Shown here in pieces: positions 886 to 15,925 of a stretch of 16,819 bases of DNA (positions within the stretch are counted from its first letter, which is position 1; every line of letters starts with the position of its first letter). Both the position numbers and the translations under genes were made by a program. The notes beneath the pieces are model-generated. The model had not been told where the DNA came from and did no database searches. It saw only the letters and a program-made list of their open reading frames with translations. The stretch is from a virus. Its lineage: Duplodnaviria; Heunggongvirae; Uroviricota; Caudoviricetes. The stretch lies in IMG/VR virus record IMGVR_UViG_2690316062_000004. One strand, 5' to 3'.

Positions 886-908
886 GGTCACTCCCTTTGT
901 GACACCTA

Positions 909-946
909 TAAAAAAGGCGCTTCCCCATGCCGAGTAGCGCCTTTTT
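909..946. terminator. Putative bidirectional intrinsic terminator between the fis remnant and yhdJ
   Basis: A-tract (909..915), stem GGCGCT (916..921) / AGCGCC (936..941), then T-tract (942..946). The loop is long, so this is a moderate call. Confidence 0.4.
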
Positions 947-970
947 AATCAAGCATTTAGCTAACCTGAA

Positions 971-985
971 TTAGTTCATGCCGTA
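971..985 (-). other. fis 3' end remnant, candidate attL core of the island
   Basis: Reverse complement reads TAC GGC ATG AAC TAA (Y-G-M-N-stop), the C-terminus of Fis, but the frame breaks immediately upstream (CAG then TGA). It lies exactly between the yhdJ start and the integrase gene. Confidence 0.5.
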
Positions 986-1047
986 CTGTCATATTAGCTG
1001 TTTTCATGCTTTTAGATGATTTTAATATTCATATAATAATCAATGCG

Positions 1048-1137
1048 TTGTATAAATTCATGCCTGTATATTGTTCCAGTGTTTTTCTTTGTTTATGCTA
1101 TTATGCAAGCAATTCTGTATAAACATTTGTATAAACA
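1048..1137. repeat. Four copies of (C/T)TGTATA(A/T)(A/T) upstream of int, possible integrase arm-type sites
   Basis: TTGTATAAATT at 1048..1058, CTGTATATTG at 1064..1073, CTGTATAAACA at 1115..1125, TTGTATAAACA at 1127..1137, in AT-rich DNA just 5' of the int start. Confidence 0.3.
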
Positions 1138-1155
1138 CTTTGGGCTGGGTGGTCT

Positions 1156-2376
1156 ATGGCTGGCGAACTTAACAAACTGAGCGACAGGAAGTTAAAGGGA
1201 TTACATGGTATCCCGGCCAGTAAGATTGAGTTCTATGCTGATGGTGCCGGGCTGAGCGCCAAGGTAACTAAAGCTGGTGGTATTAGCTGGGTGTTTACTT
1301 ACCGACTTGACGGGCAGAAGCTGCATCGTCTGACTCTGGGACGATACCCGGATATGAGCCTCAAAGAAGCCCGTTCATCGCGTGATAAATGCCGCCAGTG
1401 GCTGGCCTCAGGTAAAGATCCAAAGCACCAGTTGGCGTTGACTACTCAGGAAACCCTTAAACCGGTCACTGTTAAGGAAGCTATAGAATACTGGATACGC
1501 GAATATGCAGAAGAGAACCGCGCGAATGTTGAACGGCACAAAGCGGAGCTGCGAAAACACATTTATCCTTATATAGGGAAAATGGCGCTCGCTGACTGTG
1601 AAACACGATACTGGCTTGACTGCTTTGACAGGATGAAAAAGAAAACTCCAGTCGCCGCAGGTTATGTGTTCCAGATGTGCAAACAAGCCCTGAAATTCTG
1701 CCGGGTTCGTCGCTATGCTGTGAGTACCGCGCTTGAAGATTTAACAATTCCAGATGTCGGTAAAAAACAGGCAAAAAAAGACCGGGTATTAAACGATAAA
1801 GAGGCTGGCGATTTATGGGCTGCCATTTCCTCTGGCACTTGCTTCATGCCTTACTACACCAGGCTACTGACAATCTTAATAGTGTTTGGGTGCCGAACGC
1901 AGGAGGCCAGGCTATCAGAGTGGAGTGAATGGGATATGGATGCCTGGGTCTGGACAGTTCCCAAAGAGCACAGCAAGGGTGGCGAGAAGATTGTAAGACC
2001 TGTGCCGGATGCCATGCGCAAATTCATTGAAATACTGCATGATGAAACGAAACGATCCGGCCTTTTGCTTGGGTCGGTTAAAGGCAGTGAAGCGGTAAGT
2101 CAGTGGGGCCGCGGCGTTTATAAAAAGCTAGGGCATTCTGAACCATGGACACTGCACGATCTAAGACGAACTTTAGCAACGCATATGAATAATATGGGTA
2201 TAGCACCACACGTTGTCGAACAGTTGCTGGGGCACTCAATGCCGGGAGTCATGGCGATTTATAACCGTAGTCTGTACTTGCCTGAGAAACTGGATGCGTT
2301 GAATAAATGGTATGACAGACTTGATATTTTATCAGGTGGATTCACTAACATTGTTTTGTTGAATAAGGCTGAATAA
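1156..2376 (+). CDS. int: Tyrosine recombinase / phage integrase, P4 family
   Basis: 406 aa with an N-terminal arm-binding-type region, then catalytic-core signatures (R in GCRTQEA, HDLRRT, LLGH, and the tyrosine in AIYNRS). Confidence 0.9.
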   Translation: MAGELNKLSDRKLKGLHGIPASKIEFYADGAGLSAKVTKAGGISWVFTYRLDGQKLHRLTLGRYPDMSLKEARSSRDKCRQWLASGKDPKHQLALTTQETLKPVTVKEAIEYWIREYAEENRANVERHKAELRKHIYPYIGKMALADCETRYWLDCFDRMKKKTPVAAGYVFQMCKQALKFCRVRRYAVSTALEDLTIPDVGKKQAKKDRVLNDKEAGDLWAAISSGTCFMPYYTRLLTILIVFGCRTQEARLSEWSEWDMDAWVWTVPKEHSKGGEKIVRPVPDAMRKFIEILHDETKRSGLLLGSVKGSEAVSQWGRGVYKKLGHSEPWTLHDLRRTLATHMNNMGIAPHVVEQLLGHSMPGVMAIYNRSLYLPEKLDALNKWYDRLDILSGGFTNIVLLNKAE

Positions 2377-3026
2377 TGACTAGTTTTCTAAAATTGGGTA
2401 TTTTCGAGCGAGAAGCCAAAGCCCCGGAGCTAAATATTAAACAACTTGCACTACTTATGTGTGGGGTAGATCCGACAGTTAAAACTGCTGATATCCCTGA
2501 AGCGAAAGTTGAAGCTTACAATATATACTATCGACAACTGAGTAGATGGTTATCAGCATCTAAATTATTTCGAGGTGGAAACTCAACAGCCTATCCCGCA
2601 GACTATATGTTTGCTCTGGCATATCCTCTTATTGATGAAGATATTACACCACAACCCATAAAGGACAGATGCCTTGCGGCGGTGGCTATAATTGCTAATC
2701 AAAACAAAGGAAAAGAGCATCTTTATGCTATGGGAGGGGATGAGCTTTTACAGGTCGGAATTGCATTGAAAAGCAGCAAACGCGGCTTGCATCGTAAAGA
2801 AGATGAAAAGGAATATAATGATAAATTAATGGGGATGCTGGTCAAGCTTATAGCACATAAGATAGGCCATTCGTTTGGCACCTCTAAAAAACCAAGCATC
2901 TCGGCTATTTTAAACGAACTATATAAATTAGCTGATGAGGAAGGTATATCTAAAACTGGATTATCTAAATCAGCAATATATGAGAAAATTCGAAAGGCAT
3001 TAAATTCGATTTATTATACGGAATGA
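2376..3026 (+). CDS. Hypothetical protein (216 aa), AT-rich, int-coupled cargo gene
   Basis: ATG overlaps the int stop (TAATG at 2374..2378). The gene is visibly AT-rich compared with the neighbouring genes. I recognise no family motif. Confidence 0.6.
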   Translation: MTSFLKLGIFEREAKAPELNIKQLALLMCGVDPTVKTADIPEAKVEAYNIYYRQLSRWLSASKLFRGGNSTAYPADYMFALAYPLIDEDITPQPIKDRCLAAVAIIANQNKGKEHLYAMGGDELLQVGIALKSSKRGLHRKEDEKEYNDKLMGMLVKLIAHKIGHSFGTSKKPSISAILNELYKLADEEGISKTGLSKSAIYEKIRKALNSIYYTE

Positions 3027-3160
3027 ATATTATTTTGCAGTGTTAGTAGGTATTATTTATATTTCATGTGAAAATACTAATTAATTATATTTGTTGGAGC
3101 TTTTGGCGATTCTATGATCGCCAAGGAGATTCAATTGTTATATTTGATGTGTATTACCGT

Positions 3161-3270
3161 TACATTCAACAGCATTCAACAGCATTCAACAGCATTCAAC
3201 AGCATTCAACGACACGTAATGACACGTTATGACACGTAACGGCACCCGACAGCACCTAACAATACCTAGC
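3161..3270. repeat. Eleven 10-bp phased direct repeats (five AGCATTCAAC-type, then degenerate GACACGTAAT-type units)
   Basis: Read directly: tACATTCAAC, AGCATTCAAC x4, GACACGTAAT, GACACGTTAT, GACACGTAAC, GGCACCCGAC, AGCACCTAAC, AATACCTAGC, with strict 10-bp periodicity. Confidence 0.8.
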
Positions 3271-3310
3271 TCCATCCACGGTCCCTACTAGGTCATTACT
3301 TGCTAACTTT

Positions 3311-3373
3311 TTCCATCTTTGTTCATGGTTATTCATCACTGTTCATCAGCGTTCATCATTGTTCATCTTTGTT
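3311..3373. repeat. Six 10-bp phased GTTCATC-type repeats (iteron-like, one mismatch from TGTTCACC)
   Basis: ttccatcttt / gttcatggtt / attcatcact / gttcatcagc / gttcatcatt / gttcatcttt. TGTTCATC differs by one base from the TGTTCACC units clustered after the primase gene. Confidence 0.7.
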
Positions 3374-3626
3374 ATGAACAATCCAAGGTGAATCAAATCG
3401 TTAAAGAACGGTGATCTTCGGCGAGTTATTGAAATTCATGATTTTTTCTCTCGAGACAGCCGTTGAAATTACTGTGGAAACTGTTTTAAACAGGGGAGCG
3501 TTATCTTGATGGAATTTCTATCTTTCAATGGAATTGCATGTTCTTTTAAAGGATTCCAGAATCAATGGAAATTCTGGTCGTTTATCCACTAATCTCTTCG
3601 CATAACATTGAAACAGTGGAGGCAGC

Positions 3627-3911
3627 ATGCAAAATATAACCTTTACCCCGCCAAATCCTGAACAGCGCCGCACCCTTTTAGAAGAGTACGGCTTTAAGTT
3701 TGATCGCCGAATCCGTGAAGATGAATGCAGCGAGATCACCAGTCTTTCCCGTTCCAGCCGCTGGAAGATGGAGCAGCAGGGGCGCTTCCCTCCGCGCTGT
3801 CACTTTGGCCGCAATAGCTGTGCTTGGCTTCTTTCGGATGTGCTCTGGTGGGTTCGTAATCCGCCAGCAGTAGAGAACGTCAATAACCCATACAGCCGTA
3901 AATCTGCTTAA
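3627..3911 (+). CDS. alpA: AlpA-family (prophage CP4-57-type) transcriptional regulator
   Basis: 94 aa; the SLSRSSRWKMEQQGRFPPR segment is the typical AlpA/Vis-like helix-turn-helix signature. GGAGG RBS at 3619..3623 before the ATG at 3627. Confidence 0.8.
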   Translation: MQNITFTPPNPEQRRTLLEEYGFKFDRRIREDECSEITSLSRSSRWKMEQQGRFPPRCHFGRNSCAWLLSDVLWWVRNPPAVENVNNPYSRKSA

Positions 3912-3931
3912 TTAACCACAGGTAATCTGAG

Positions 3932-4624
3932 ATGAAAAAGATTAATGCCCTCCACGGGCAGGGATTCGCTCACCCTGTAGCCAGCCAGCACGATATTTCA
4001 GCGAACCGTAAACAGGTTATTTCCGGTGACTGGTCGCCCATTAATCGCGGTGAATTTACGCTTGCCGATCTGGGGTTGCGCCACAACGGTAACGGGCTGG
4101 TGTGGCTGCGTTCCGGCGTGTCCGTGCATGAGGCAGACCATGATGTAGGGATAAGCGGCAAGGACAAGACCAAAGGAAGGGTTAATGGTCTTCCTTTTGA
4201 ATTTGTCGGCCAGTGGCAGGAATACCCGACTAAACGCAGCTTTGCCGTTTCAGTATCTACGGAACTACGCCGCCAGTATTACCCGGACGATGCCACTTTT
4301 GGTAAGGCGATGCGTGAGGCGGGTTATATCCCCGTGCGCACCCGTAAATTGACCGGGAAGCTGGCAAGTTACTGGCTGTATAGAGTAACGGGTAACGATA
4401 AGGGGGTATGCACAGCAGAACCCACGCCCTGCAAGGCTTCCGCGCCAGTTGTCCAGACCATATCTAAGCCTCATCCGTGGTTTAAACGTGTGGCACTCGA
4501 TGGTAAATGGCAGTACGTCTACGCAGATCACATCCGCTTTCTGACGAAAAAGCGTCATCGCGTCGATGGTGTTCGGGTTCAGGGGTATACCGCTGGCGGG
4601 CTGAAAGTGGAGGCTATTGTATGA
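3932..4624 (+). CDS. Hypothetical protein (230 aa), backbone gene of unknown function
   Basis: Long ORF with backbone-like GC content directly after alpA. No motif recognised. Confidence 0.55.
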
Positions 4625-4734
4625 CAGGCAAAACAAAGGCGGCCATGCCGGGCCGCCAGTGCAATACCGCTTTACAGAAACATCGCCAGATTACCAGGCT
4701 TGCCGCTGGTGGTCAAACCTTGAGCCGACGAAAT

Positions 4735-4772
4735 CCGTACGCACAAATTAACCGCGTACGTTTAACGTACGG
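4735..4772. promoter_or_regulatory. CGTACG-based palindrome cluster, possible operator
   Basis: Perfect 8+1+8 inverted repeat CGTACGTT-t-AACGTACG at 4755..4771, plus a further CCGTACG half-site at 4735..4741. Confidence 0.3.
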
Positions 4773-4875
4773 AGATCGAGACAAAGGCGAACAGTATTCG
4801 GGTTCATGGCAAAACAACGTTAAACGTGGTTTAGAGGCTCCGACGAAAAACGTAGAGAGCTGCGAAGATAACCAA

Positions 4876-4945
4876 CCCTCTTTAAGAGGGGAGCCTCTGC
4901 ACAACTCATTAATAGTTGCGCAAAACAGACCCTTTTTAAGAGGGG
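4876..4945. repeat. Two copies of a 16-bp palindromic unit, CCCTCTTTAAGAGGGG and CCCTTTTTAAGAGGGG
   Basis: 15 of 16 positions identical at 4876..4891 and 4930..4945; each unit is a (near-)perfect inverted repeat. They lie just 3' of the minus-strand small gene. Confidence 0.5.
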
Positions 4946-4976
4946 CAGTCCACAGCATTACGGGGAGTAACCCTGT

Positions 4977-5150
4977 TCAGCCTTTTGGCTCGATGCCGCG
5001 CTTATCAAGTTCACGGCGCAAAAGGCGTTTTATCCATCCCGACTTATTATCGTCACCGTCTTCTTTCATCGCTAAAGCGAGCCGCTCTGACAGTTCTTTA
5101 TCGAGTCTGAGCTGCACAACATGGCGCTCTTTATTTTCGCTTGTTGACAT
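4977..5150 (-). CDS. Small ribbon-helix-helix-like DNA-binding protein (57 aa), candidate repressor
   Basis: Internal ATG at 5150 preceded on the minus strand by GGAG. The peptide [57 protein letters not shown] has the strand-helix-helix pattern of Arc/CopG-type proteins. The 38-aa proline-rich extension in the ORF track (start 5264) looks non-coding. Confidence 0.45.
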
Positions 5151-5192
5151 TGTCAACTCCTGTGGTCTAGTCTGTAGTGGAGTTGACAATGT
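5147..5192. promoter_or_regulatory. Perfect 14-bp inverted repeat with 18-bp spacer, covering the RBS and start codon of the RHH gene
   Basis: ACATTGTCAACTCC (5147..5160) and GGAGTTGACAATGT (5179..5192) are exact reverse complements. TTGACA hexamers occur at 5144..5149 and 5183..5188. Confidence 0.6.
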
Positions 5193-5289
5193 ACTACATT
5201 GCATGACTTTTAGTAAAGCAAAGCCCGGCAGTGGTGGAACACTAACCGGGCCTCTAACCACCACCGTTAGCGAAAGTAACGAGGCAGCT

Positions 5290-5481
5290 ATGAAAGATCA
5301 TATCACACACCCGCAAGGGCGGAAGTCCTACATCTGGCGTTTTCTTGCACTGAGCGCCATCGGTCGCAACGTCATTCACATCACAGCTAACACTGAGCGC
5401 GAAGCCCGTGAGCAATCACCGGCTGGCTGCGTGATGGTATGCGCTGGCCGTCTACCAGTTCAGGAGGTTCGCTATGCGTGA
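5290..5481 (+). CDS. Hypothetical small protein (63 aa), first gene of the replication operon
   Basis: ATG at 5290 with GAGG five nt upstream; stop overlaps the next ATG (ATGCGTGA). It is the only plausible part of the 324-aa track ORF. Confidence 0.35.
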
Positions 5482-5668
5482 GCCAATCTGTCTGGAGCAG
5501 GCCGAATATAAATCAGCGCTGGCTTCATCACTTTACGAAACCATCCTGGAAAAAGCCTCTGCTGAATGTTCAGAAACGCTGCTGAATCTGATTTCTATTG
5601 CGTGTGATTTTAATCAGGAAATTCACCGGGCATTAATCGCCGAGCTGCACATGGGAGAGACAAAGTGA
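5474..5668 (+). CDS. Hypothetical small protein (64 aa)
   Basis: Strong AGGAGG RBS at 5463..5468 before the ATG at 5474. Confidence 0.5.
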
Positions 5669-5880
5669 GACAGGTTCCTTTTGAAGTCCTGATGCACGCT
5701 GAAAATGCCCTTTCAGAAAGTGAGTGCGCAATGTCTGTGCTGAGCATGTGGATTGACAGCATTCCCGACGGTGAAGAACACCGTGAGGAAGCGTGCCGTG
5801 TCGGAGCAATTATGTCTCTGCTGCACAAATCTATCGGCGAGCTGGTGAAGGCGCGGGAGGCTTACAGTGCGAAATCCTGA
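5665..5880 (+). CDS. Hypothetical small protein (71 aa)
   Basis: GTG start overlapping the upstream stop (GTGA), with GGGAGAG RBS upstream. Confidence 0.45.
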   Translation: MRQVPFEVLMHAENALSESECAMSVLSMWIDSIPDGEEHREEACRVGAIMSLLHKSIGELVKAREAYSAKS

Positions 5881-6058
5881 AATCAACGATAGCTGGAAGG
5901 ATAAGCGCGGCGAACTGGTCACGGTGAAAGATAACGCATTTAACCGGGTAACGTTTGTGCGTGATGGTTACGATTTTCCGTGCATCTTTCCGCTGGAAAG
6001 GTTCGTTAAAGAGTTCACTTTCGTTAGCTGGGGGCTGAAAGATGAAAAACGCGCCTAA
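5867..6058 (+). CDS. Hypothetical small protein (63 aa)
   Basis: GTG start with GGGAGG RBS at 5855..5860; the 3' end overlaps the primase start. Confidence 0.45.
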   Translation: MRNPEINDSWKDKRGELVTVKDNAFNRVTFVRDGYDFPCIFPLERFVKEFTFVSWGLKDEKRA

Positions 6059-7811
6059 TGTGAAAACCCTCCCGCGCGACAAAATGGAGGAGGCCATCAT
6101 CTTTGCTGGAACGGGAGCATGGAAAGCCGCTCAGGATTACCAGAAAGGCAAGGGCGAGCATGGAGACGATGTTCCACCTGTGGTTCTGGATCACACCCAA
6201 CTGGCGGAATTGCCACACCTGCGCATTGTTGATAAAGGCCGTCGGTTTGCTCGTGTCTGTCAGGCCGGACTTATCGAGCAAAACCAAATCAGCATGATTG
6301 CAAATAAGCTGTGTGAGGCTGGCGTTACCAATGCTGAGTTTATCAACGAAAAAGGTGAGAAAGAGGACTGGACGCCATTAATGAAGCGTTTGGAAGACGA
6401 GCCCCTAATGGTGACTACGAGGGGTAGTGCTACGCCAGCGCTTAACCAGATGGGAGCCAGCCAGCGCGGGGAGGTTCTGCTTGCTCATTACGATGGCAAT
6501 CTGGCGATCCATGCTGATTCTGACACGGTTCATCATTACAACGGCGTGGTGTGGGTTCCGCTTTCGGATAAAGAGCTACAGCGGGAAATGGCGCAAATTT
6601 TTATTGATGCCGAAGTCGCCTATTCGCAGAACGCGATTAAATCCGCTGTCGATACAATGAAGCTGGGTCTGCCAGTGATGGGTAATACAGCCCGAAATCT
6701 TATTGGTTTCAGCAACGGGGTTTTTGATACCCGGTTAGGCCAATTTCGACCGCATGATAAAAAGGACTGGCTTATCGTTGCGAGCGAATTGCCATTCAGC
6801 GAACCAGCAGAAGGAGAGACTCTGGCAACCCATGCGCCGAACTTCTGGAAATGGCTCCGCCGCTCAGTGGCGGATAATGACCGAAAAGCAGACCGCGTAC
6901 TGTCTGCGCTGTTTATGGTGCTGGCGAACCGGTACGACTGGCAGCTGTTTCTTGAGGTAACGGGGCCGGGCGGAAGTGGTAAAAGTGTTATGGCTGAGAT
7001 CTGCACGATGCTGGCGGGCAAGGCCAACACCGTATCAGCGAGCATGGCGGCGCTGGAGAACCCAAGGGAAAGGGCGCTGGTAGTGGGCTATTCGCTGATT
7101 ATCATGCCGGATATGACCCGGTACGCTGGCGACGGCGCAGGGATTAAAGCTATCACTGGCGGGGATAAGGTAGCCATTGACCCTAAACACAAAGCGCCAT
7201 ATTCAACCCGTATTCCAGCGGTGGTGCTTGCCGTCAATAACAATGCCATGTCGTTCAGCGACAGAAGCGGGGGGGTTTCCAGACGGCGGGTGATTTTCAA
7301 CTTCTCCGAAGTGGTACCGGAAAACGAACGCGATCCTATGCTGGCCGAGAAGATTGAAGGTGAGCTGGCTGTAATCATTCGCCACCTGCTCACTCGCTTT
7401 TCCAGGCAGGACGAAGCCAAACAGCTTTTGCATGAGCAGCAGAAATCAGAAGAAGCGCTGGCCATCAAACGTGAAGGGGATTCACTGGTGGACTTTTGCG
7501 GCTACCTGATGGCTTCGGTGGTTTGTGATGGAATGCTGATTGGCAATGCCGAGATCGTGCCATTCAGCCCGCGCCGTTATCTGTATCACGCTTATCTGGC
7601 TTATATGCGGGCTAATGGTCTGAGCAAGCCGGTATCGCTGATGAGGTTCGGTACGGATATGCCAGGCGCAATGGCTGAATATGGCAAGGAGTACCAGAAG
7701 CGCAAAACAAAACATGGCATAAGGTCAAACGTCACGCTTCACGACGACTCAGAAGACTGGATGCCTATGTGGAATGATACATCTCATAACAGTGGAGAAA
7801 ATCAAAAGTAA
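6042..7811 (+). CDS. P4-family primase/replicative helicase (alpha-like, D5/SF3 NTPase)
   Basis: 589 aa; Walker A GPGGSGKS with downstream Walker B-like acidic stretch (LIIMPDMT), the usual layout of phage/plasmid primase P4-family C-terminal domains. Followed immediately by an iteron cluster. Confidence 0.85.
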   Translation: MKNAPNVKTLPRDKMEEAIIFAGTGAWKAAQDYQKGKGEHGDDVPPVVLDHTQLAELPHLRIVDKGRRFARVCQAGLIEQNQISMIANKLCEAGVTNAEFINEKGEKEDWTPLMKRLEDEPLMVTTRGSATPALNQMGASQRGEVLLAHYDGNLAIHADSDTVHHYNGVVWVPLSDKELQREMAQIFIDAEVAYSQNAIKSAVDTMKLGLPVMGNTARNLIGFSNGVFDTRLGQFRPHDKKDWLIVASELPFSEPAEGETLATHAPNFWKWLRRSVADNDRKADRVLSALFMVLANRYDWQLFLEVTGPGGSGKSVMAEICTMLAGKANTVSASMAALENPRERALVVGYSLIIMPDMTRYAGDGAGIKAITGGDKVAIDPKHKAPYSTRIPAVVLAVNNNAMSFSDRSGGVSRRRVIFNFSEVVPENERDPMLAEKIEGELAVIIRHLLTRFSRQDEAKQLLHEQQKSEEALAIKREGDSLVDFCGYLMASVVCDGMLIGNAEIVPFSPRRYLYHAYLAYMRANGLSKPVSLMRFGTDMPGAMAEYGKEYQKRKTKHGIRSNVTLHDDSEDWMPMWNDTSHNSGENQK

Positions 7812-7819
7812 TGGGAAAA

Positions 7820-8049
7820 GTGTTCACCACTATTCACCGTGGATAAAATCGTCTATTTAACAGATAGTTAAGGGGTGAACACTTTTTATTGAAGTGTTCA
7901 CCAAGTATTCACCTGTTCACCTTTAAAGGGTTTTTCTTTTAAAAGGTGAAGGGTTAGGGTGAATACTAGTGAATACTTAAAATTATAGTCTTCACCCTGT
8001 AACCCAATGAATTTAAATAGGAAAAATGCAAAGGTGAACAGGTGAACAC
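7820..8049. repeat. Iteron cluster (TGTTCACC / TATTCACC / CTTCACC and complements), putative replication origin (ori/crr)
   Basis: At least eleven copies in both orientations, e.g. GTGTTCACC 7820..7828, TATTCACC 7831..7838, GGTGAACAC 7874..7882, GTGTTCACC 7895..7903, TGTTCACC 7914..7921, GGTGAATAC 7959..7967, GGTGAACAGGTGAACAC 8033..8049, with an AT-rich tract at 7921..7945. Confidence 0.65.
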
Positions 8050-8082
8050 TTAAACGTATATTTCTATTTTTTGAGGCTACAG

Positions 8083-8427
8083 ATGGAAATTTTAGGTAAT
8101 CATAAAGACAAGTTTCAGGGTATCCAATTTCTGCATAGTGCAATCGAAGAACTGAATGAGAAAACTGGAGTAACGCTGACAGACTATCTGGCTTTAAGGG
8201 CTTTTGTTCTGGCTGAGCGAAGGGAAAATCAGGATTACATTGACGCTATGGATGCACCATATGCTGACTTACCAGATGAACTGCGTTCTTACATTGAACT
8301 TCTCAATGATGTTGCTGCACAACTGTCCAATCCAGCACGTTCAAATGGAGATTTGAGGTCAATCATTTATGATGCGAGAATATCCAGCGGAAACGCTGTG
8401 TCTCACTGGCTTAATGTCGAAAGATAA
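8083..8427 (+). CDS. Hypothetical acidic protein (114 aa), first gene of the AT-rich cargo cassette
   Basis: ATG at 8083 with GAGG at 8074..8077 (the track's 8071 would be a TTG start). AT-rich; no motif recognised. Confidence 0.55.
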   Translation: MEILGNHKDKFQGIQFLHSAIEELNEKTGVTLTDYLALRAFVLAERRENQDYIDAMDAPYADLPDELRSYIELLNDVAAQLSNPARSNGDLRSIIYDARISSGNAVSHWLNVER

Positions 8428-8450
8428 TAAAGTCTACAGAGGAAGAGTTA

Positions 8451-9296
8451 ATGCGAACTAACGATAATTTACAGATGATCAATAAACATCTGGAAGGAGA
8501 GTTTGAACGGCAATTGTTTGACTCTGCGATCTACAATCTTTTAGATGTAAATAATCAACTTCGCTTCAGTAATTATGCCTATGCACTTAGAGAACTATTT
8601 TTACACGTCATAAAACGCATGGCACCTGATAAAAATGTTCAGTCATGTGATTGGTTCCCTGGCTTGAATGAAAGAGAGCAGGTCTCAAGAAAAGACTCTT
8701 ACAAATATATAATCCAGGGTGGGTTAAGTGATGAATATGTCAGGGAAGAGCTTGATGTAAATGTTGCTGGGGTTTTTCCGAGGTTACGTGACGCATTCAA
8801 TTCATTAAATAAATTTACTCACATCAGCGAAAATATTTTCCCAATTAATGATGATGCTGGCCTCCAAATGGTCGGAGAGGTTGAAGGCTGTATCAGCGCT
8901 CTTTTCACCAAGCTTGATGAGTGTCATAAGGAGATAATTAATAAGCTATATGAAGCCGTTAGTGAGGCCGCGATTCATAGTTCGATAACTGAAACTGTAA
9001 CATCAATTGATATTTTATCGACACACAGTTCGGTTGATGAAGTGTATGTTGATGATGTTAAAATAGTAGAAATAAATGATACTGAAATAGTTTTCTCTGT
9101 TATTGGTTCTGTAGGTGTCGGGTTGCAATGGGGATCTAATTCCGATTTGCGAAATGATATTGGTGCTGTAGGTAGTGAGACATTCCCATTTACCTGCGAG
9201 GTGAGAAGTCCAGTGTATGCCCCTGAAAGTTTAGAGTGTGATGAAGGGGCATTCCATGCAGATACTTCAAGCTGGTGGGAAGGGTATTACGACTAA
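8451..9296 (+). CDS. Hypothetical protein (281 aa), second gene of the AT-rich cargo cassette
   Basis: ATG 24 nt after the upstream stop; AT-rich; followed by an intrinsic terminator. Contains an R-x4-H stretch (RELFLH), which is only weak evidence for any fold. Confidence 0.6.
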   Translation: MRTNDNLQMINKHLEGEFERQLFDSAIYNLLDVNNQLRFSNYAYALRELFLHVIKRMAPDKNVQSCDWFPGLNEREQVSRKDSYKYIIQGGLSDEYVREELDVNVAGVFPRLRDAFNSLNKFTHISENIFPINDDAGLQMVGEVEGCISALFTKLDECHKEIINKLYEAVSEAAIHSSITETVTSIDILSTHSSVDEVYVDDVKIVEINDTEIVFSVIGSVGVGLQWGSNSDLRNDIGAVGSETFPFTCEVRSPVYAPESLECDEGAFHADTSSWWEGYYD

Positions 9297-9333
9297 CAAG
9301 TGTAAATTATTTGTCCTCGCGCTTATTAGTGCT

Positions 9334-9360
9334 TAGCCCGATTAAATTCGGGCTTTTCTT
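9334..9360 (+). terminator. Intrinsic terminator after the cargo cassette
   Basis: Stem AGCCCGA (9334..9340), loop TTAAAT, stem TCGGGCT (9347..9353), then TTTCTTT. Confidence 0.6.
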
Positions 9361-9528
9361 TATTATTTTCATGTATATGTTGAGAAGTGGCACTCAGACG
9401 TGAGCCGCCACTGGCCGTTAAGTCAAGCTGTAGCGAGTACAGCCTGCGAGAGGCAGAAAAAGATTTAACGGCCTCCCCCCTAAGCGCTGGTTTCACGTCT
9501 TAACATTAATTGTTACGGAAACCACTCC

Positions 9529-10695
9529 ATGAAGAAACTACTCGAATTACGCCAGCAGAAAGCCGCACTCAAAACACAGATGCGTTCCATGCTGGACAAA
9601 GCCGACACCGAAAAGCGCAGCCTGAACGAAGAAGAGGGCAAAAAGTTCGATGAACTCCGCGCCCAGGCTGATGCGCTTGAAGTTGAAATCACCCGTCTAG
9701 AAGCCGTCGCCGACGATCAGCGCAATCTGCCTGGTACTTCCGTTGAAGGTGAGCCAGTAAGCAACGACGAGCTGCGCCACTACATCATGACAGGTGATAC
9801 CCGTTCTCTCTCCACGCTGGTGCAGGCTGATGGCGGCTATACCGTTATCCCTGAGCTGGACAAAGAGATTATGCGCCAGTTGCAGGATGATAGCGTGATG
9901 CGCTCCATCGCAACGGTGAAGACCACCAAAACCAACGAATACCAGAAGCTGGTATCTGTGGGCGGCACTACCGTTAATCGTGGTACCGAAGGTGAGGCAC
10001 GTACCGAAACCAGTACGCCGAAGATGGAGCGCGTTGATATCAAACTCAACCCGATCTACGCCTACCCGAAAACCACTCAGGAGATTCTCGACTTCTCCGA
10101 GGTGGATATTTTGGGCTGGCTGTCTTCTGAAATTGCCGACACCTTCACCGCGACCGAAGAAAGCGACTTTGTGAACGGCGACGGTGATAAAAAATCCAAA
10201 GGCTTCCTGTCTTACCCTCGCGCGGCCACTGCCGACAAAACCCGTCCGTTCGGTACGCTGGAGAAGATGGAAGCGGCTGACGTTTCCTCTGATGGCCTGA
10301 TCGACCTGCTGTATAAGCTGAAAGCCAAATACCGCAAAAACGCCGTATGGGTGATGAACTCCAACACCGCAGCCAAACTGCAAAAGCTGAAAAACGGCAA
10401 CGGGGATTACATCTGGCGCGATCGTCTGGTTGCCGGTTCTCCCGATACGCTGCTGGGCCGTCCTGTTCAGTATCTGGAAACCATGCCGGATGCGGAGGCA
10501 GGTAAAGCATTCCTCGCGGTAGGCGACTTCAAGCGCGGCTATTTCATCGTGGATCACACCACTGGCGTGCGTACCCGCCCTGACAACATCACCGAGCCGG
10601 GTTTCTACAAGGTGCATACCGATAAATACCTGGGCGGTGGTGTGGTGGACTCCAACGCCATCAAGGTGCTTGAGCTTTCAGGCTCCGGTTCCTGA
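9529..10695 (+). CDS. Major capsid protein, HK97 fold, with N-terminal coiled-coil scaffold-like domain
   Basis: 388 aa. The N-terminal ~100 aa are highly charged and helical (delta-domain-like), followed by a capsid-type body. Its position directly before a prohead protease and portal supports the call. Confidence 0.85.
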   Translation: MKKLLELRQQKAALKTQMRSMLDKADTEKRSLNEEEGKKFDELRAQADALEVEITRLEAVADDQRNLPGTSVEGEPVSNDELRHYIMTGDTRSLSTLVQADGGYTVIPELDKEIMRQLQDDSVMRSIATVKTTKTNEYQKLVSVGGTTVNRGTEGEARTETSTPKMERVDIKLNPIYAYPKTTQEILDFSEVDILGWLSSEIADTFTATEESDFVNGDGDKKSKGFLSYPRAATADKTRPFGTLEKMEAADVSSDGLIDLLYKLKAKYRKNAVWVMNSNTAAKLQKLKNGNGDYIWRDRLVAGSPDTLLGRPVQYLETMPDAEAGKAFLAVGDFKRGYFIVDHTTGVRTRPDNITEPGFYKVHTDKYLGGGVVDSNAIKVLELSGSGS

Positions 10696-10705
10696 TTTGA
10701 CGTTT

Positions 10706-10726
10706 AAGGGGCTGCGGCCCCTTTTT
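10706..10726 (+). terminator. Intrinsic terminator/attenuator after the capsid gene
   Basis: GGGGC-TGCG-GCCCC hairpin (10708..10721) followed by TTTTT (10722..10726). Confidence 0.55.
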
Positions 10727-10746
10727 GCCCTCTGTGGAGTCCAGTA

Positions 10747-11307
10747 ATGAAAACAATCGATTTTGAAATCCGTACCTCCGAAGTGAGCGCCAGCAACAAA
10801 AAGCTGGTGGGCTATGCCGTGCGCTGGAACAGTCTCTCTGAAATTATCTGGGACGAGTTCCGCGAGCAGTTTGCGCCGGGAGCGTTTAAAGACAGCCTGG
10901 CATCCGGTAGCGATGTGCGTGCGCTGTACGAGCATAACTATACCCAGCTGCTGGGCCGCACTAAATCCGGCACGCTGGTGCTGTCAGAAGATGATACCGG
11001 GCTGCGCTTCGAGCTGACCCCGCCGAATACCCAGCTTGGCAACGATGTGCTGGAGCTGGTGGAGCGCGGGGATATCTCCGGCATGAGCTTTGGTTTCCGG
11101 GCGCTGAAAGAGGCGTGGGATATTGCTCAGTCTCCATACCTGCGCACTGTTACCGCTGCCGAACTGCGGGAGATTACCGTTACCTCTATGCCTGCTTATC
11201 CTGAGTCTGGCGTGGAAATCGCGCACCGTTCGCTTTTCTCCCAATATCCTGAACTGCGCCGGGCTGGTGATAACCGCCGCCGCTGGGCTGAATTAGCGGG
11301 GCTCTGA
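10747..11307 (+). CDS. Prohead serine protease, HK97 family
   Basis: 186 aa, with N-terminal GYAVRW and the SFGF segment typical of HK97-type prohead proteases. Confidence 0.8.
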   Translation: MKTIDFEIRTSEVSASNKKLVGYAVRWNSLSEIIWDEFREQFAPGAFKDSLASGSDVRALYEHNYTQLLGRTKSGTLVLSEDDTGLRFELTPPNTQLGNDVLELVERGDISGMSFGFRALKEAWDIAQSPYLRTVTAAELREITVTSMPAYPESGVEIAHRSLFSQYPELRRAGDNRRRWAELAGL

Positions 11308-11308
11308 T

Positions 11309-12544
11309 ATGTGGAATATCTGGCCGTTTGGCCGTAAGTCTGAACCCTCTGAGCAGCGCAGCATGACCATTGATGAGTTTCTGGCGATGGCAGGGATTCC
11401 AAATACCGGATCAGGCGAATATGTGTCTGCGGGTACTGCGGAATCTCTGCCGGCGGTCATGAACGCCGTGTCAGTTATCAGTGAGGCGGTGGCAACAATG
11501 CCCTGCTACCTCTACCGCGTGCGCAACGATAACGGGCGTGAGGCGCGAGAATGGCTGAGCAATCACCCGGTGGATTTTCTCCTGAACGAGCAGCCGAACG
11601 ACTGCCAGACGCCTTATCAGTTTAAACGCACGATGATGCGCCATTGTCTGCTGAACGGTAACGCCTATGCGGTGATCCAGTGGGGCCGCGACGGCCAGCC
11701 GCAATCCCTGCACCCGTATGCGCCGGGGGCGGTTGTTCCTGAGCGTATCGGCCAGCATAAGTACAAATACACCGTTACAGAGCCGTTTACCGGGGCTGTG
11801 CGCACCTATCTACAGGAAGAGATTCTGCACCTGCGTTACTCCACCGATGATGGCTTTCTGGGGCGTTCGCCTATTACTACGTGCCGTGAGGCGCTGGGGT
11901 TAGGTCTGGCCCAACAGCGCCACGGTGCCAGCATTATGAAAGATGGCATGATGGCGGCGGGCGTCGTCACTACTGCTGAATGGCTCGACAGCGTGAAGGG
12001 TAAGCAGGCTCTGGACGCACTGGAGCGCTACAAAGGTGCCAGAAATGCCGGGAAAACGCCGATCCTTGAAGGTGGCATGGACTACAAGCAGCTTGGCATG
12101 AGCAATCAGGATGCCGAATGGCTGGCGTCGCGCCGGTTCTCCATTGAAGACATTGCCCGCATGTTCAATGTGTCGCCCATCTTCCTGCAGGAATACAGCA
12201 ACAGCACCTACAGCAATTTCAGCGAAGCGAGCCGCGCCTTTCTCACCATGACCATGCGCCCGTGGCTGGCGAACTTCGAGCAACAAATCAAATCTGCTTT
12301 GCTGGTGGCCTCTCCGGTTCCAGGAACCCGCTATCAGGTGGAGTTTGACTCTGCTGACCTTCTCCGTGCCACACCTACCGAGCGTTACGCCACTTATGAG
12401 CGAGGCATTAAGAACGGGATCATGAACCCGAACGAAGCCCGTGAGCGCGAGGGGATGCCGCCGCGTAAAGGTGGTGACGAATTCAGCCAGGCATGGAAGC
12501 AGGAAGTGAAGATCAGCAAAGACGGCAAGGAAGGTGACGCATGA
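11309..12544 (+). CDS. Portal protein, HK97 family
   Basis: 411 aa; size, composition and position (between protease and adaptor) fit HK97-type portals; translationally coupled to its neighbours. Confidence 0.85.
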   Translation: MWNIWPFGRKSEPSEQRSMTIDEFLAMAGIPNTGSGEYVSAGTAESLPAVMNAVSVISEAVATMPCYLYRVRNDNGREAREWLSNHPVDFLLNEQPNDCQTPYQFKRTMMRHCLLNGNAYAVIQWGRDGQPQSLHPYAPGAVVPERIGQHKYKYTVTEPFTGAVRTYLQEEILHLRYSTDDGFLGRSPITTCREALGLGLAQQRHGASIMKDGMMAAGVVTTAEWLDSVKGKQALDALERYKGARNAGKTPILEGGMDYKQLGMSNQDAEWLASRRFSIEDIARMFNVSPIFLQEYSNSTYSNFSEASRAFLTMTMRPWLANFEQQIKSALLVASPVPGTRYQVEFDSADLLRATPTERYATYERGIKNGIMNPNEAREREGMPPRKGGDEFSQAWKQEVKISKDGKEGDA

Positions 12545-12879
12545 GAGCCGGGGGGCTGAGAAGCCGCGACACTATTCGGGTATTCACTACCCACAGGGAG
12601 CCGTCCGGTCAGGTTGTTCAGGTCTGGGAAGACGGGGAAACCATATGGGCTGAGGTTAAGGGGATCAGTGGCCGAGAGTTAATGGCGTCAGGTGCCGAGG
12701 TTGCCGAAGCGACGATCCGCGTTTGGGTGCGTTTCCGCCGTGATATTACCGCAGCCAACCGTCTGAAAGTGCTTACTGGCCCGTTTGCTGGCAGCACTCT
12801 CAATATTATCGGGCCTCCTATTCCTGATTCGGAAGGTACTCGGCTGGAAATTCTCTGCAAGACAGGAACGGAAAAATGA
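12541..12879 (+). CDS. Head closure / head-tail adaptor protein
   Basis: 112 aa; ATGA overlap with the portal stop; pattern resembles small head-tail joining proteins. Confidence 0.65.
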   Translation: MRAGGLRSRDTIRVFTTHREPSGQVVQVWEDGETIWAEVKGISGRELMASGAEVAEATIRVWVRFRRDITAANRLKVLTGPFAGSTLNIIGPPIPDSEGTRLEILCKTGTEK

Positions 12880-13169
12880 CAGCAGAAATCACCCTGGATG
12901 AAGCAAAGCTGCATTGCCGTATTGATGATGATTACGAAGATACGTTGATACAGGCGTACATCGATGCGGCGCTGGAGGTTTGCCAGAAGCATATCGGCAA
13001 GCGGTTTGATAACGGGCTGGAGTTTACGCCAGCTATCAAGATTGGCTGTCTGATGTACGTATCTCAGCTGTACGAGTACCGCACGATGATTGGTGATACC
13101 GACGCCAAAGAGATACCGATGGCTGTCTCTGCGTTGTGGTCTGTCTATCGTGATGTGGGGGTGTACTGA
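12876..13169 (+). CDS. gp6-like head-tail connector protein
   Basis: 97 aa; N-terminus ITLDEAKLHCRIDDDYEDTLIQAYIDAA matches the gp6-like connector signature. Confidence 0.7.
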   Translation: MTAEITLDEAKLHCRIDDDYEDTLIQAYIDAALEVCQKHIGKRFDNGLEFTPAIKIGCLMYVSQLYEYRTMIGDTDAKEIPMAVSALWSVYRDVGVY

Positions 13170-13612
13170 TGCCGTGGCAACCACTACGCCGGTGCAATGA
13201 GCCGGGATGTAATAAACGGGTGAAGTCTGGCAAGTGTGACGAGCATAAGCGGGATGCCCGCCGACAAAGCGACAGCCGAAGAGGTACGCGAACAGAGCGT
13301 GGTTACTCCAACCGCTGGGGCGAATACCGTCGTCATTTTCTAAAAGCTAATCCGCTGTGTGTCCATTGTCTCAAGGCTGGCGTCTATGCATCGGCAACTA
13401 TCGTCGATCACATCATCCCTATCGAGGGTGAAGCTGATGTGCTGTTCTGGCCCGCCAGTAATCACCAGTCGTTATGCGCTGCCTGTCATGGACGGAAGAC
13501 AACCACAACAGACCCGGTGACGAAGCAGCAGCGTAAAGCCGGTAAGTTCCGCGAGCAGGAAGAAGCAGCACGTCATCGCACCGACTGGATCTATGAGGCA
13601 AACAATGACTGA
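13169..13612 (+). CDS. HNH endonuclease (packaging-associated)
   Basis: 147 aa with Cys clusters (CNEPGC, CVHC, CAAC) and a histidine in the DHIIPI segment; TGATG overlap with the upstream gene; sits immediately before the terminase genes. Confidence 0.8.
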   Translation: MPWQPLRRCNEPGCNKRVKSGKCDEHKRDARRQSDSRRGTRTERGYSNRWGEYRRHFLKANPLCVHCLKAGVYASATIVDHIIPIEGEADVLFWPASNHQSLCAACHGRKTTTTDPVTKQQRKAGKFREQEEAARHRTDWIYEANND

Positions 13613-13887
13613 GCAGGAACAGCAGCGGCTGATTAGTGGGCTGATAAAGCAGCGTGAGTCATGGCAACCAGCCAGACAGAGAGCGCATAAGAAGCCCGTA
13701 GCAAAGCGCATGAGCCAGCGTGACCGGGAGCTTATGGAATGCTTTCGCAACCGCTGACAGGCCGAATGGACGGGGTGGGGGAGGTTTTCAGGACAAACCC
13801 CTCTCAGCGAGGAACCACCCGCCCCCTCAAATTTTTACGCACGGTGATTTTTTTGAAAATAAAACGCGACGGAAACGAGAAATTTTT

Positions 13888-14244
13888 ATGGCAAGACCAC
13901 CCAAACCGCCAGCTTACCTTGATGAGTTAGCTGCGCAGCAGTGGAAAGCGAAGGCGAAGCAACTGGCGGAGCGCGGGGATTTGACTCCCGCCGACTGGAA
14001 CAACCTTGAGCTTTTTTGCGTCAACTATTCGATGTACCGCAAAGCCGTGGAAGACCTTGCCAGCCGTGGGTTCAGCATTGTTAACAGCCAGGGCGGTGAG
14101 AGCCGAAATCCGGCGCTGAGCGCAAAGGCCGATGCTGAAAAAATCATGATTAAAATGTCGTCGCTGCTGGGCTTTGATCCGGTAAGCCGCCGCCGGAACC
14201 CGGTGGAAACGGAGGAGGAAGACGAGCTTGACCGTCTGGAATGA
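13888..14244 (+). CDS. Terminase small subunit (P27-like)
   Basis: ATG at 13888 gives the 118-aa protein MARPPKPPAYLDELAAQQW..., typical of small terminases; the GTG at 13720 in the ORF track would add a glycine-rich, non-protein-like leader. Confidence 0.7.
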   Translation: MARPPKPPAYLDELAAQQWKAKAKQLAERGDLTPADWNNLELFCVNYSMYRKAVEDLASRGFSIVNSQGGESRNPALSAKADAEKIMIKMSSLLGFDPVSRRRNPVETEEEDELDRLE

Positions 14245-15889
14245 GTACGCAAACGCGATAAAAACGGGCGAAATTCCGGCCTGTAAGCGCGTAAAACAGG
14301 CCGTGGAAAGGTACTTTTCAGACCTGAATGACCCCCGTTATGTGTTCGATACGGCGACCGTAGAGCGGTTTATTGCGTTCTCGCGGCTCTGTCCTCACGT
14401 CAAAGGCCCGTTGCGCGGGCAGTCTATCGAGCTGGAGCCGTGGCAGCAGTTCGCCTTTGCTAACCTGCTGGGCTTTAAAGTCAGGGAGTCAGGCCGCCGG
14501 AAGTATAGCAGCGCCTTTATTGAGGTGCCGCGCAAGAATGCCAAATCCACCGTGGCCGCCATGCTGGCTAACTGGTTTCTGGTGATGGAGAAGGGCCAGC
14601 AGGATATCTACACGGCGGCGGTAAGCCGGGATCAGGCCCGAATCGTGTTCGACGATGCCCGCCAGATGTGCCTGCTGTCAAAACCGCTGAAAAAGCGCGT
14701 CAGTATTCAGGCACACAAGGTCATTTTCCCGAAGAGCAACAGCCTGTTAAAGCCGCTGGCGGCAAAAGCGGCCACCATTGAAGGGACTAACCCCAGCCTG
14801 GCGATTGTCGATGAGTACCACCTTCACCCGGATAACGGCGTTTATTCCGCGCTTGAGCTGGGTATGGGCGCCCGTCCTGAGGCAATTTTGTTCGCCATCA
14901 CTACCGCCGGGAGTAACGTAGTCTCGGCCTGTAAGCAGCATTATGACTACTGCTGCCAGATTCTGGCAGGGGAAGAGAGCAACGATTCTCTGTTTGTCCT
15001 GATATACGAGCTGGACGACGAAATTGAGGTTGAGCAGCCGGAAATGTGGATTAAGGCCAACCCTAACCTGCATGTGTCTGTTGACGCAGCGAAGCTGGAA
15101 TCCACCATCCAGAAAGCGCGGGGGGTACCGTCGCAATGGGTGGAAATGCTCACCAAACGTTTCAATATCTGGTGTCAGGGCTCCACGCCGTGGATGGGGG
15201 CTGGCGCGTGGGATGCCTGTGCACTCGACTATAACGAAGAAGAGCTGGTCGGAATGGAGTGTTATGCCGGGTTTGACCTGTCCTCAACCAGCGATATCAC
15301 CAGCGTGAGTTACGCTTTCCCGTTTGACAGGGAGATCCGGCTTCTGACCCGCCACTATCTACCGGAAGCGCAACTGCTTAACGTCGCCAACAAAAACCGC
15401 GCCATCTATCGCCAGTGGGTAAAAACGGGCTGGATACGCACCACACCCGGCGACTGTATCGACTATGACCGCATTCGTGACGATATCCTGCGCGATGCTG
15501 AAACCTTCAATATTCGGCTGGTGGGCTTTGATACGTGGAACGCTACGCATCTGCGCACCCAGCTACAGGGTGCGGGCCTTGATGTTGAGCCATTCCCGCA
15601 AACCTATCTCAGGTTCAGTCCGGTAGCGAAATCCTTTGAAGTGTTTGTTAACCGCAGGGTAGTGCGCCATCGCGGTGATCCGGTTCTGGCCTGGGCGATT
15701 GGTAACGTGGTGATGGAGTCCGACGCCAATGCCAACATCAAGCCCAACAAAAAGAAATCCTCCAACAAGATAGATCCGGCTGTGTCTGCGTTAATGGCGT
15801 TTGGCACCTTCCAGGCTGAGCACGAGGATTTTGCATTTGATATGAGTGACAGTCACAAACAACGGCTAGCTGATTTCAATGGGCTTTGA
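14228..15889 (+). CDS. Terminase large subunit
   Basis: 553 aa with the overall layout of large terminases. No in-frame ATG near the 5' end, so a TTG start at 14228 overlapping the small subunit is assumed; the start is uncertain. Confidence 0.85.
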   Translation: MTVWNEYANAIKTGEIPACKRVKQAVERYFSDLNDPRYVFDTATVERFIAFSRLCPHVKGPLRGQSIELEPWQQFAFANLLGFKVRESGRRKYSSAFIEVPRKNAKSTVAAMLANWFLVMEKGQQDIYTAAVSRDQARIVFDDARQMCLLSKPLKKRVSIQAHKVIFPKSNSLLKPLAAKAATIEGTNPSLAIVDEYHLHPDNGVYSALELGMGARPEAILFAITTAGSNVVSACKQHYDYCCQILAGEESNDSLFVLIYELDDEIEVEQPEMWIKANPNLHVSVDAAKLESTIQKARGVPSQWVEMLTKRFNIWCQGSTPWMGAGAWDACALDYNEEELVGMECYAGFDLSSTSDITSVSYAFPFDREIRLLTRHYLPEAQLLNVANKNRAIYRQWVKTGWIRTTPGDCIDYDRIRDDILRDAETFNIRLVGFDTWNATHLRTQLQGAGLDVEPFPQTYLRFSPVAKSFEVFVNRRVVRHRGDPVLAWAIGNVVMESDANANIKPNKKKSSNKIDPAVSALMAFGTFQAEHEDFAFDMSDSHKQRLADFNGL

Positions 15890-15925
15890 TAGTGCTTGAA
15901 CTTTTCAAATTGTCACTGTAATTCT

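Follow-up and report, generated by a model that had tools for sequence, protein, structure and literature searches.

A probable cos site between the HNH and small terminase genes of a capsid-forming satellite in Escherichia coli

Where is the DNA of a satellite that builds its own capsids cut for packaging? The question is raised by a stretch of 16,819 nucleotides (nt) recorded as viral DNA (IMG/VR record IMGVR_UViG_2690316062_000004; "the window" denotes this whole stretch), in which an interval of 275 nt separates a gene for an HNH endonuclease from terS, the gene for the small terminase subunit (TerS). An earlier note made from the letters had taken the window for an HK97-type phage, proposed a cohesive-end (cos) site in this interval, and pointed out G-rich and C-rich tracts, T-rich runs and a 50-codon open reading frame (ORF). 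In HNH-dependent packaging systems cos lies between hnh and terS. Its gene content identifies the window as a capsid-forming phage-inducible chromosomal island (cf-PICI), a tail-less satellite in an E. coli chromosome between yhdJ and fis, and the gap between its HNH and terS genes very probably holds the cos site of this satellite.

Results

A conserved composite element between HNH and terS

The G-tract (GGGGTGGGGGAGG at 13772-13784), the C-tract (CCACCCGCCCCCTC at 13815-13828), the T-runs (13832-13836, 13848-13854 and 13883-13887, with the terS ATG at 13888) and the 50-codon ORF were all found at the coordinates given for them in the earlier note. The flagged interval is present at its full 275 nt but is not non-coding throughout, as positions 13605..13757 form a small gene and the true non-coding gap is 130 nt (13758..13887). 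Within the window alone, the tracts do not go beyond chance: CCCGCCCC has one copy compared to 0.47 expected, with at least one copy in 74 of 200 shuffled sequences, and GGTGGGGGAG, the core of the G-box (≤1 mismatch), occurs once compared to 0.72 expected. The tracts were therefore rejected as significant from the window alone, since shuffled sequences often hold a copy; their significance comes from the comparison with relatives only, not from the composition of the window.

Relatives were gathered by way of TerS and comprised 80 loci from IMG/VR and 80 loci from species-representative genomes with TerS identities from 100% to 37%. From the G-box to GAAAATA it was possible to align 46 distinct sequences from 49 genomes (Enterobacterales, Aeromonas and Pasteurellaceae) without gaps, the sole exception in length being one or two bases within the G-run, over a stretch of ~95 nt that corresponds to positions 13772-13866. 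Nucleotide diversity, computed over 76 distinct close relatives, differed strongly between the blocks of this stretch (Table 1). The T/A block (13827-13866), nearly invariant from E. coli through the Pasteurellaceae, had a diversity of 0.030 compared to 0.196–0.210 at third codon positions of terS and terL (~sevenfold lower), and the G-box, kept in three bacterial orders, had a diversity of 0.077 compared to 0.36–0.41 at third codon positions of HNH and the small ORF just upstream. The spacer between the G-box and the C-box varies like neutral sites, yet its length is never altered. On this comparative evidence, the gap contains a composite cis-element of ~95 bp with fixed spacing that is under strong selection, and the G-rich and C-rich tracts, as conserved G-box and C-box, belong to it. 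The cos type of the window (query 13765..13887) occurred in 21 of 5,426 complete E. coli genomes, at 1–2 copies per carrying genome, always on the chromosome and always in unannotated intergenic DNA.

Several Pasteurellaceae elements carry ~100 nt of short palindromic units (e.g. CTCCTCAAATTTGAGGA and GATCCAAAAATGGATCGG) between the cos block and terS, and these insertions leave the conserved block intact. A related island is represented by OR845787, a 1,621-bp 'UNVERIFIED' low-coverage contig from a phage lysate on E. coli O157:H7 ATCC 43895, which spans HNH, the small ORF, cos and terS (~80% identity over HNH-terS; TerS 100% identical over 106 residues); satellite DNA of this cf-PICI family thus turns up in routine coliphage sequencing. 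Among islands with terS-terL differing by ~8%, the head/HNH side differs by 25–44%, and maximum chi-square breakpoints fall in 13700-13870 in 43 of 72 comparisons, with a second cluster at ~12894, where the head completion gene meets the connector gene. This pattern suggests an exchange of modules with a joint near cos; a mosaic joint exactly at the cut was rejected, the breakpoints being scattered over 13704, 13736, 13767, 13818 and 13866.

Homology to the cos of SfI and SfV

Among characterised cos sites, the nearest is found in the SfI/SfV phages and not in HK97. These Shigella and Salmonella phages (SfI, SfV, SfII, SfIV and ST64B) have a P27-family TerS and HNH as the last gene. The window TerS is 40–43% identical to TerS of SfV, SfI and ST64B, the window HNH is 38% identical to SfV orf53 (E 9e-17) and the large terminase subunit (TerL) is 31% identical to SfV TerL (E 4e-78). 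For SfI, run-off sequencing of virion DNA compared to the prophage left a 10-nt gap, 5'-TGCCCGCCCC-3' (PMC3636060), and by our reading of the method its presence in both outward run-offs means recessed 5' ends, and so a 3' overhang, as in HK97. The SfI record JX509734 terminates with TGCCCGCCCC, 75 nt past the HNH stop, and restarts at GTCGTTTTTTTATACCCGCGAAAAATGAAATTT, 50 nt before terS.

This SfI end aligns with positions 13816-13825 of the window (CACCCGCCCC), with the G-box ending 33–34 nt upstream and a T-run downstream at 13832-13836; in SfI and SfV the G-box GGGGAGGGGCGGG stands at the same distance, 33–34 nt upstream of the C-box. SfV-like prophages in many enterobacterial genomes have the form GGACTGCCCGCC[C/T]C..(A/T)TTTTTATACCCGCGAAAAATGAAATTT, also rendered as GGACTGCCCGCC[C/T]C...TTTTTATACCCGCG, and the cf-PICI consensus is GAACCGCCCGCCCCCTCAAATTTTTACGCA..GAAAATAA; the C-boxes of cf-PICIs and SfV-like prophages are alignable base for base (GGACTGCCCGCCCC vs GAACCACCCGCCCC). 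In a semi-global alignment of the gap of the window with the SfV cos, the score was reached by 29 of 2000 dinucleotide shuffles. By alignment to the SfI end, the cohesive end of the element is predicted at 13816-13825.

Breaks in DNA from phage preparations

Two database records of DNA from phage preparations break within this gap. LR881103 (vB_KppS-Ant) derives from a phage preparation on Klebsiella pneumoniae DSM 30104, is a de novo SPAdes assembly of Nextera XT reads, and was concluded by its authors to be an induced prophage of the strain (PMC8006926). The record is a linear contig with the gene order terS, terL, ..., int, ..., capsid, ..., HNH, small ORF. The 60 nt at either end of the contig have exact matches, 69 nt apart, in the chromosome of K. 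pneumoniae ATCC 13883, which by its culture-collection number we take to be the same strain as DSM 30104. The 69 nt absent from LR881103 correspond to positions 13795-13863 of the window, C-box included, and the chance of a random break in 16.5 kb landing within the 130-nt gap is ~0.8%. Assembly of a circular or permuted genome should yield a closed circle, so that a linear LR881103 speaks for real ends within the missing interval, and a short symmetric hole would presumably be expected because the tips of linear molecules are lost from transposase libraries and reads do not cross annealed nicks.

From its gene content and host strain, LR881103 is a cf-PICI linearised at cos, most likely KpCIDSM30104, the satellite of K. 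pneumoniae DSM 30104 for which cohesive ends have been reported (He et al. 2025 preprint). The window TerS is 94–95% identical to the TerS of LR881103, and between the C-box and GAAAATAAA the two cos gaps are almost the same. In the article that describes it, LR881103 is a filamentous single-stranded DNA phage of a new genus (PMC8006926), and its organism name says Escherichia with Klebsiella as host. Cutting at cos would give a packaged form with terS-terL at one end and HNH-small ORF at the other, exactly as in LR881103, and so accounts for the gene order that had appeared inverted in the earlier note; that order is the normal integrated order of the cf-PICI family, the same order having been described for proteobacterial members.

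The final 15.9 kb of PQ569648 ('Klebsiella phage P12620-1', 106,503 bp) are collinear with positions 24 to 16506 of LR881103, with terS first, the small ORF last and no equivalent of window positions 13753-13889. Labelled a complete genome, this record is a chimera in which 90.6 kb of unrelated DNA adjoins the cf-PICI at terS codon 2, and it ends 5 nt ahead of the stop codon of the small ORF. The predicted cut lies inside the missing intervals of both records.

Evidence against the assignment and alternative explanations

Several observations weigh against a cos site cut at this position. The position of the cut rests on SfI homology and two assembly breaks, not on mapped termini; the break in PQ569648 is the weaker evidence because that assembly is chimeric, and that ~21–31 nt and ~38 nt could plausibly be lost at the ends of a Nextera assembly is our own interpretation. 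None of the contigs of the 80 IMG/VR loci (TerS all at least 97% identical) begins or ends in the gap. Local alignment to the SfV cos is weak when taken alone (177 of 2000 shuffles reach the score), and the HK97 cos gives no significant alignment (397 of 1000 shuffles for local and 62 of 1000 for semi-global alignment). Further, the bases of the predicted overhang vary among relatives (13817, 13818 and 13820, the central G being G, C or T in the Pasteurellaceae). With variable overhang bases, the flanking blocks, and not the sequence that is cut, would have to position the nuclease, and the variation would be harmless to cohesion because both ends of one molecule derive from the same site. Set beside the gene content, the conservation, the fixed spacing, the homology between the C-box region and the cos of SfI/SfV and the assembly breaks in the interval, these points leave a probability of about 80% for the whole explanation, in which a cf-PICI relies on an HNH, a TerS and a TerL of its own to package its DNA from a ~95-bp composite cos in 13758-13887.

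A conserved block directly upstream of terS could alternatively be mainly an expression element for terS-terL (a promoter, UP element, 5' untranslated region or translation signal), with the packaging site elsewhere in the island; A/T tracts are common in promoter regions, and the GAAAATAAGGA end of the block in Pasteurellaceae doubles as the terS ribosome-binding site. However, scans of the gap for sigma-70-like promoters and terminators found no site, the gap has no Rfam match and folds no better than shuffles (z = -0.47), and the segment nearest the terS start codon is the least conserved (diversity 0.165), while the insertions of ~100 nt between block and terS in several Pasteurellaceae loci leave the block undisturbed. 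As the homologous C-box of SfI is a mapped cohesive end and both phage-preparation assemblies break in the gap, an expression element in place of cos is unlikely. The ends of this exact element are predicted and not mapped, which would leave room for headful (pac) packaging with the gap as a pac site or unrelated to packaging, but this is highly improbable given that HNH adjoins terS and TerL is HK97/SfV-like, the arrangement of HNH-dependent cos packaging, that cohesive ends are reported for KpCIDSM30104, and that a permuted genome would give a circle and not a linear contig missing 69 nt.

Another conceivable role for the two tracts, in place of recognition or cleavage by proteins, is mutual base pairing, either in DNA as a cruciform or in RNA as a hairpin such as a terminator after the small ORF. 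They form an imperfect inverted repeat (87% of cells pairable in register compared to 45–67% with the partner slid), SfI has a perfect 8-bp repeat (GGGGCGGG...CCCGCCCC), and the minimum-free-energy fold pairs both tracts. The signal, though, comes almost wholly from invariant G:C columns and not from covariation; variable columns mostly break pairs, with the outer pair C:A in 14 and C:C in 6 sequences and the fifth pair T:C or T:T in 12 sequences. With an ordinary fold energy (the z of -0.47 above), a hypervariable loop of 33 nt and no terminator-like stem-plus-T-run found in the scan of the gap, mutual pairing is very unlikely, and two-fold binding of a protein at cos would lead one to expect an inverted repeat just as much. 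The claim of the earlier note that a cos lies between HNH and terS was supported by the homology to the SfI end, the conservation, the two assembly breaks and the cohesive ends reported for KpCIDSM30104, and the part it gave to the G-rich and C-rich tracts by their conservation and their SfI/SfV counterparts.

A conserved small gene beside cos

The 50-codon ORF starts with an ATG at 13605 and stops with a TGA at 13755-13757, overlaps HNH by 8 nt and is preceded by GAGG ~8 nt ahead of the start codon. A constant 16 nt separate the stop from the downstream GGTGGGGG. Its match to PHROG 3173, a family of no known function, is full-length (residues 1-50 against profile positions 1-57 of 57). Two allele families were seen (MTEQEQQRLISGL... 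and MNEKDVVNLYQSL...), with ~42% amino-acid identity between them and the C-terminal motif RMSxRDRELxECFRNR kept in both, and each of 42 distinct DNA variants has 50 codons. The ratio of nonsynonymous to synonymous changes (dN/dS) is 0.20 and 0.22 within the two families, and changes by codon position number 27/21/42, enriched at the third.

The ORF described as unannotated in the earlier note proved to be real, though annotation is missing only from the nearest RefSeq genome: LR881103 has the ORF annotated, and several NCBI genomes list a hypothetical protein for it. That it is a chance open frame in the tail region of HNH from which no protein is made could be argued from its shortness, its lack of Pfam or NCBIfam matches, its missing annotation in the nearest RefSeq genome and its being missing from Pasteurellaceae relatives. 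The full-length match to phrog_3173, the exact constancy of length across two diverged families, the low dN/dS with its third-position excess, the conserved GAGG and the ATGA-type overlap with the HNH stop make such a chance frame exceedingly unlikely. By its pattern of substitution and its position, the small ORF is a real gene under purifying selection and translationally coupled to HNH.

An AlphaFold2 model of the product has helices at residues 3-27 and 38-48 (mean predicted local distance difference test score, pLDDT, 79) and no fold match in the PDB, and the product has no Pfam or NCBIfam match. A homology search gave close relatives only, all named hypothetical, and a tblastn search gave three phage records only, all derived from cf-PICIs. 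The gene is absent from Pasteurellaceae elements and from some enterobacterial ones with the same cos. As many relatives with the same cos lack it, the small protein is not part of the core cutting machinery and is dispensable for this cos type; at a guess, made with low confidence, it might be an accessory DNA-binding or packaging factor.

Gene content of the element

The window begins within the E. coli gene yhdJ, and the island extends from ~1.0 kb to past 16.8 kb at the yhdJ/fis site; a related island occupies the same site in a genome that is 99.6% identical over 13400-14100. The gene order is integrase, AlpA-type regulator, D5-type primase and accessory genes, followed by a head and packaging module of capsid, S78 protease, portal, head completion protein, connector, HNH, TerS and TerL (Table 1). 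The left side, with its integrase, AlpA-type regulator and primase/replication module, and the island size agree with those of cf-PICIs (~10–18 kb). Each of the head and packaging proteins (9529-15889) has a Pfam match, in the order of the cf-PICI description. Neither tail nor lysis genes were found among the ORFs of the window or in the full island of the near-identical genome. The proteobacterial cf-PICIs have been described with the order capsid-protease-portal-head connectors followed by hnh-terS-terL (10.1101/2022.09.08.507074). Elements of this class are satellites that make their capsids themselves, are induced by a helper phage and take only tails from it. HNH (TGA at 13610-13612) is the last large gene of the predicted packaged chromosome, and HNH, terS and terL adjoin one another, the end of HNH lying 275 nt from terS. 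This arrangement is tied to HNH-dependent cos packaging by He et al. and Alqurainy et al. citing Kala 2014.

Table 1. Features of the HNH-terS region and of the other cf-PICI modules, in positions of the window
Feature	Position	Strand	Remarks
Integrase	1156-2376		cf-PICI left module
AlpA-type regulator	3627-3911		cf-PICI left module
D5-type primase	6042-7811		cf-PICI left module
HNH endonuclease	13169..13612	+	packaging-associated nuclease; Pfam HNH E 7.5e-07; phrog_144 E 2.9e-39
Small ORF	13605..13757	+	50 codons; basic two-helix protein; phrog_3173 E 3.7e-17
G-box, GGGGTGGGGGAGGTTTTCAGGACAAACC	13772..13799	.	conserved left block; near predicted right end of packaged DNA
Spacer	13800..13814	.	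hypervariable, 15 nt, fixed length; diversity 0.305; many haplotypes
C-box	13815-13826	.	diversity 0.111; includes predicted cohesive end
Predicted 10-nt cohesive end, CACCCGCCCC	13816..13825	.	predicted 3' overhang; aligned to SfI end
T/A block, TCAAATTTTTACGCACGGTGATTTTTTTGAAAATAAAACG	13827..13866	.	most conserved non-coding block; predicted left end of packaged DNA
terS ribosome-binding region	13867..13887	.	two versions, less conserved; diversity 0.165; haplotypes
TerS, P27 family	13888..14244	+	Pfam Terminase_4 E 3e-25; TIGR01558 E 1.6e-18
TerL	14228..15889	+	ATPase and nuclease domains; Pfam TerL_ATPase, TerL_nuclease

A low-GC accessory slot between primase and capsid holds a gene for a 281-aa protein (8451..9296, +) with matches to Pfam pP_pnuc_1 (E 5e-32) and pP_pnuc_2 (E 1e-36), predicted pPIWI-associating nuclease domains, and to PADLOC Aga_Nuclease (E 1e-84). 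No Argonaute gene was found in the window, and these matches suggest a stand-alone defence-type nuclease that the satellite carries as cargo. Just upstream lies a 118-aa ORF (8071..8427, +) without a family match. After terL, on the fis side of the island, a 297-aa ORF (15926..16819, -) in DNA of 34–41% GC has no Pfam or PADLOC match; by eye its GHGSMHG and QCYAG resemble a His/Cys protease dyad, as a candidate only.

Discussion

The cos site may be cut as follows, the nick positions, the polarity of the overhang and the assignment of proteins to blocks being drawn from homology with SfI/SfV and analogy with HK97 and lambda. After induction, the island would excise, replicate and package its own DNA. 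TerS would bind the T/A block just downstream of the cut, a candidate site by analogy with HK97, and TerL, stimulated by HNH, would make staggered nicks in the C-box that leave 10-nt 3' cohesive ends at ~13816-13825 (CACCCGCCCC). The packaged chromosome would then start ~60 nt upstream of terS and stop just after the small ORF and G-box. The G-box, ~20–45 nt from the right end, would enter the head after all other conserved elements and may serve as a recognition or termination signal, the latter like cosQ of lambda by analogy only.

A more speculative extension, which we consider doubtful as a whole, is that cf-PICIs and SfV-like phages share a two-armed cos, with inverted G-box and C-box copies 33–34 bp apart around a free spacer, both read by one protein (HNH or the TerL nuclease) and only the C-box cut. 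The Enterobacterales-specific basic protein of 50 aa, encoded 16 nt from the G-box, might then be a cos-specificity or end-protection factor that separates packaging of the satellite from that of the helper, and cos might be the boundary, and preferred exchange joint, between fast-diverging head/HNH and conserved terS-terL modules.

The cf-PICIs and their cos-type packaging are already published; neither the position nor the sequence of cos is given in the cf-PICI literature examined, including the preprints of Alqurainy et al. 2022 and He et al. 2025. New here are the location and block structure of the site, a prediction of the cohesive end to the base, the connection with the cos of SfI/SfV, and the identification of two database "phage genomes" (LR881103 and PQ569648) as satellites linearised at cos. 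Current understanding is not overturned; an expected part of a recently described family is filled in, mainly for specialist use and as a start for experiments. The cf-PICIs spread between species and package only their own DNA in their own small capsids, so that cos would set this exclusivity. The ~95-bp element, with its predicted cut and candidate TerS site, offers a target for mutagenesis, binding and in vitro cleavage, and would be what a plasmid has to carry in order to be mobilised by cf-PICI capsids. The block signature of cos could be used to find cf-PICIs and packaged ends in viromes, and a conserved, previously unstudied small protein beside cos is flagged.

Comparison with known systems

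Gene content and order in the window are as in the cf-PICIs EcCIEDL933 and KpCIDSM30104 (Alqurainy et al. 2022 and He et al. 2025 preprints), which differ from it in accessory genes, HNH alleles and small-ORF alleles.

The assignment to an HK97-type phage made in the earlier note was rejected, as the gene content is that of a cf-PICI and TerS belongs to the P27 family. The window HNH is 39% identical to HK97 gp74 (E 2e-16) and the window TerL, homologous to those of both HK97 and SfV, is 28% identical to HK97 gp2 (E 8e-49); TerS has no detectable similarity to HK97 gp1 (BLASTP E 2.5, no Pfam family in common) and is instead of the P27 family, as in SfV. The HK97 terminase leaves a 10-nt 3' overhang in a cut stimulated by the HNH protein gp74, and HK97 TerS binds 15 bp at +15 to +29 downstream of the cut at ..CCCGATTTTTT, reading one G and the adjacent A-tract (PMC11331095); the bound bases in the HK97 record are CTAACCCGATTTTTT. 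In HK97 and in the window alike, cos lies between HNH and terS with a G-run upstream and GATTTTTTT ~20 nt after the cut, predicted in the case of the window, where GATTTTTTT starts 20 nt past the predicted end and within 13827-13866. Direct homology of the gap to the HK97 cos was rejected, scores falling within the range of shuffles, and the common GATTTTTTT and G-run are kept as an analogy.

The cos of lambda consists of cosQ, cosN and cosB, with one element upstream of the cut site and a region bound by TerS downstream of it, beside the terminase genes. The window resembles it in this three-part logic and differs in other respects, the overhangs of lambda being 5' and 12 nt long, its TerS unrelated and an HNH protein lacking.

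The SfI/SfV-type phages are complete temperate phages of 37–41 kb with tail and lysis genes, compared to a satellite of ~15 kb, and are without a small ORF between HNH and cos. The flanks of the C-box also differ, with TCAAATCTCT after the G-box and ATACCCGCGAAAAATGAAATTT in the phages compared to AGTTTTCAGGACAAA and ACGCACGGTGATTTTTTTGAAAATAA in the window, which is consistent with separate packaging specificities. Common to the phages and the window is the layout itself: HNH, G-box, ~33 nt, C-box, T-run, A-rich block and terS.

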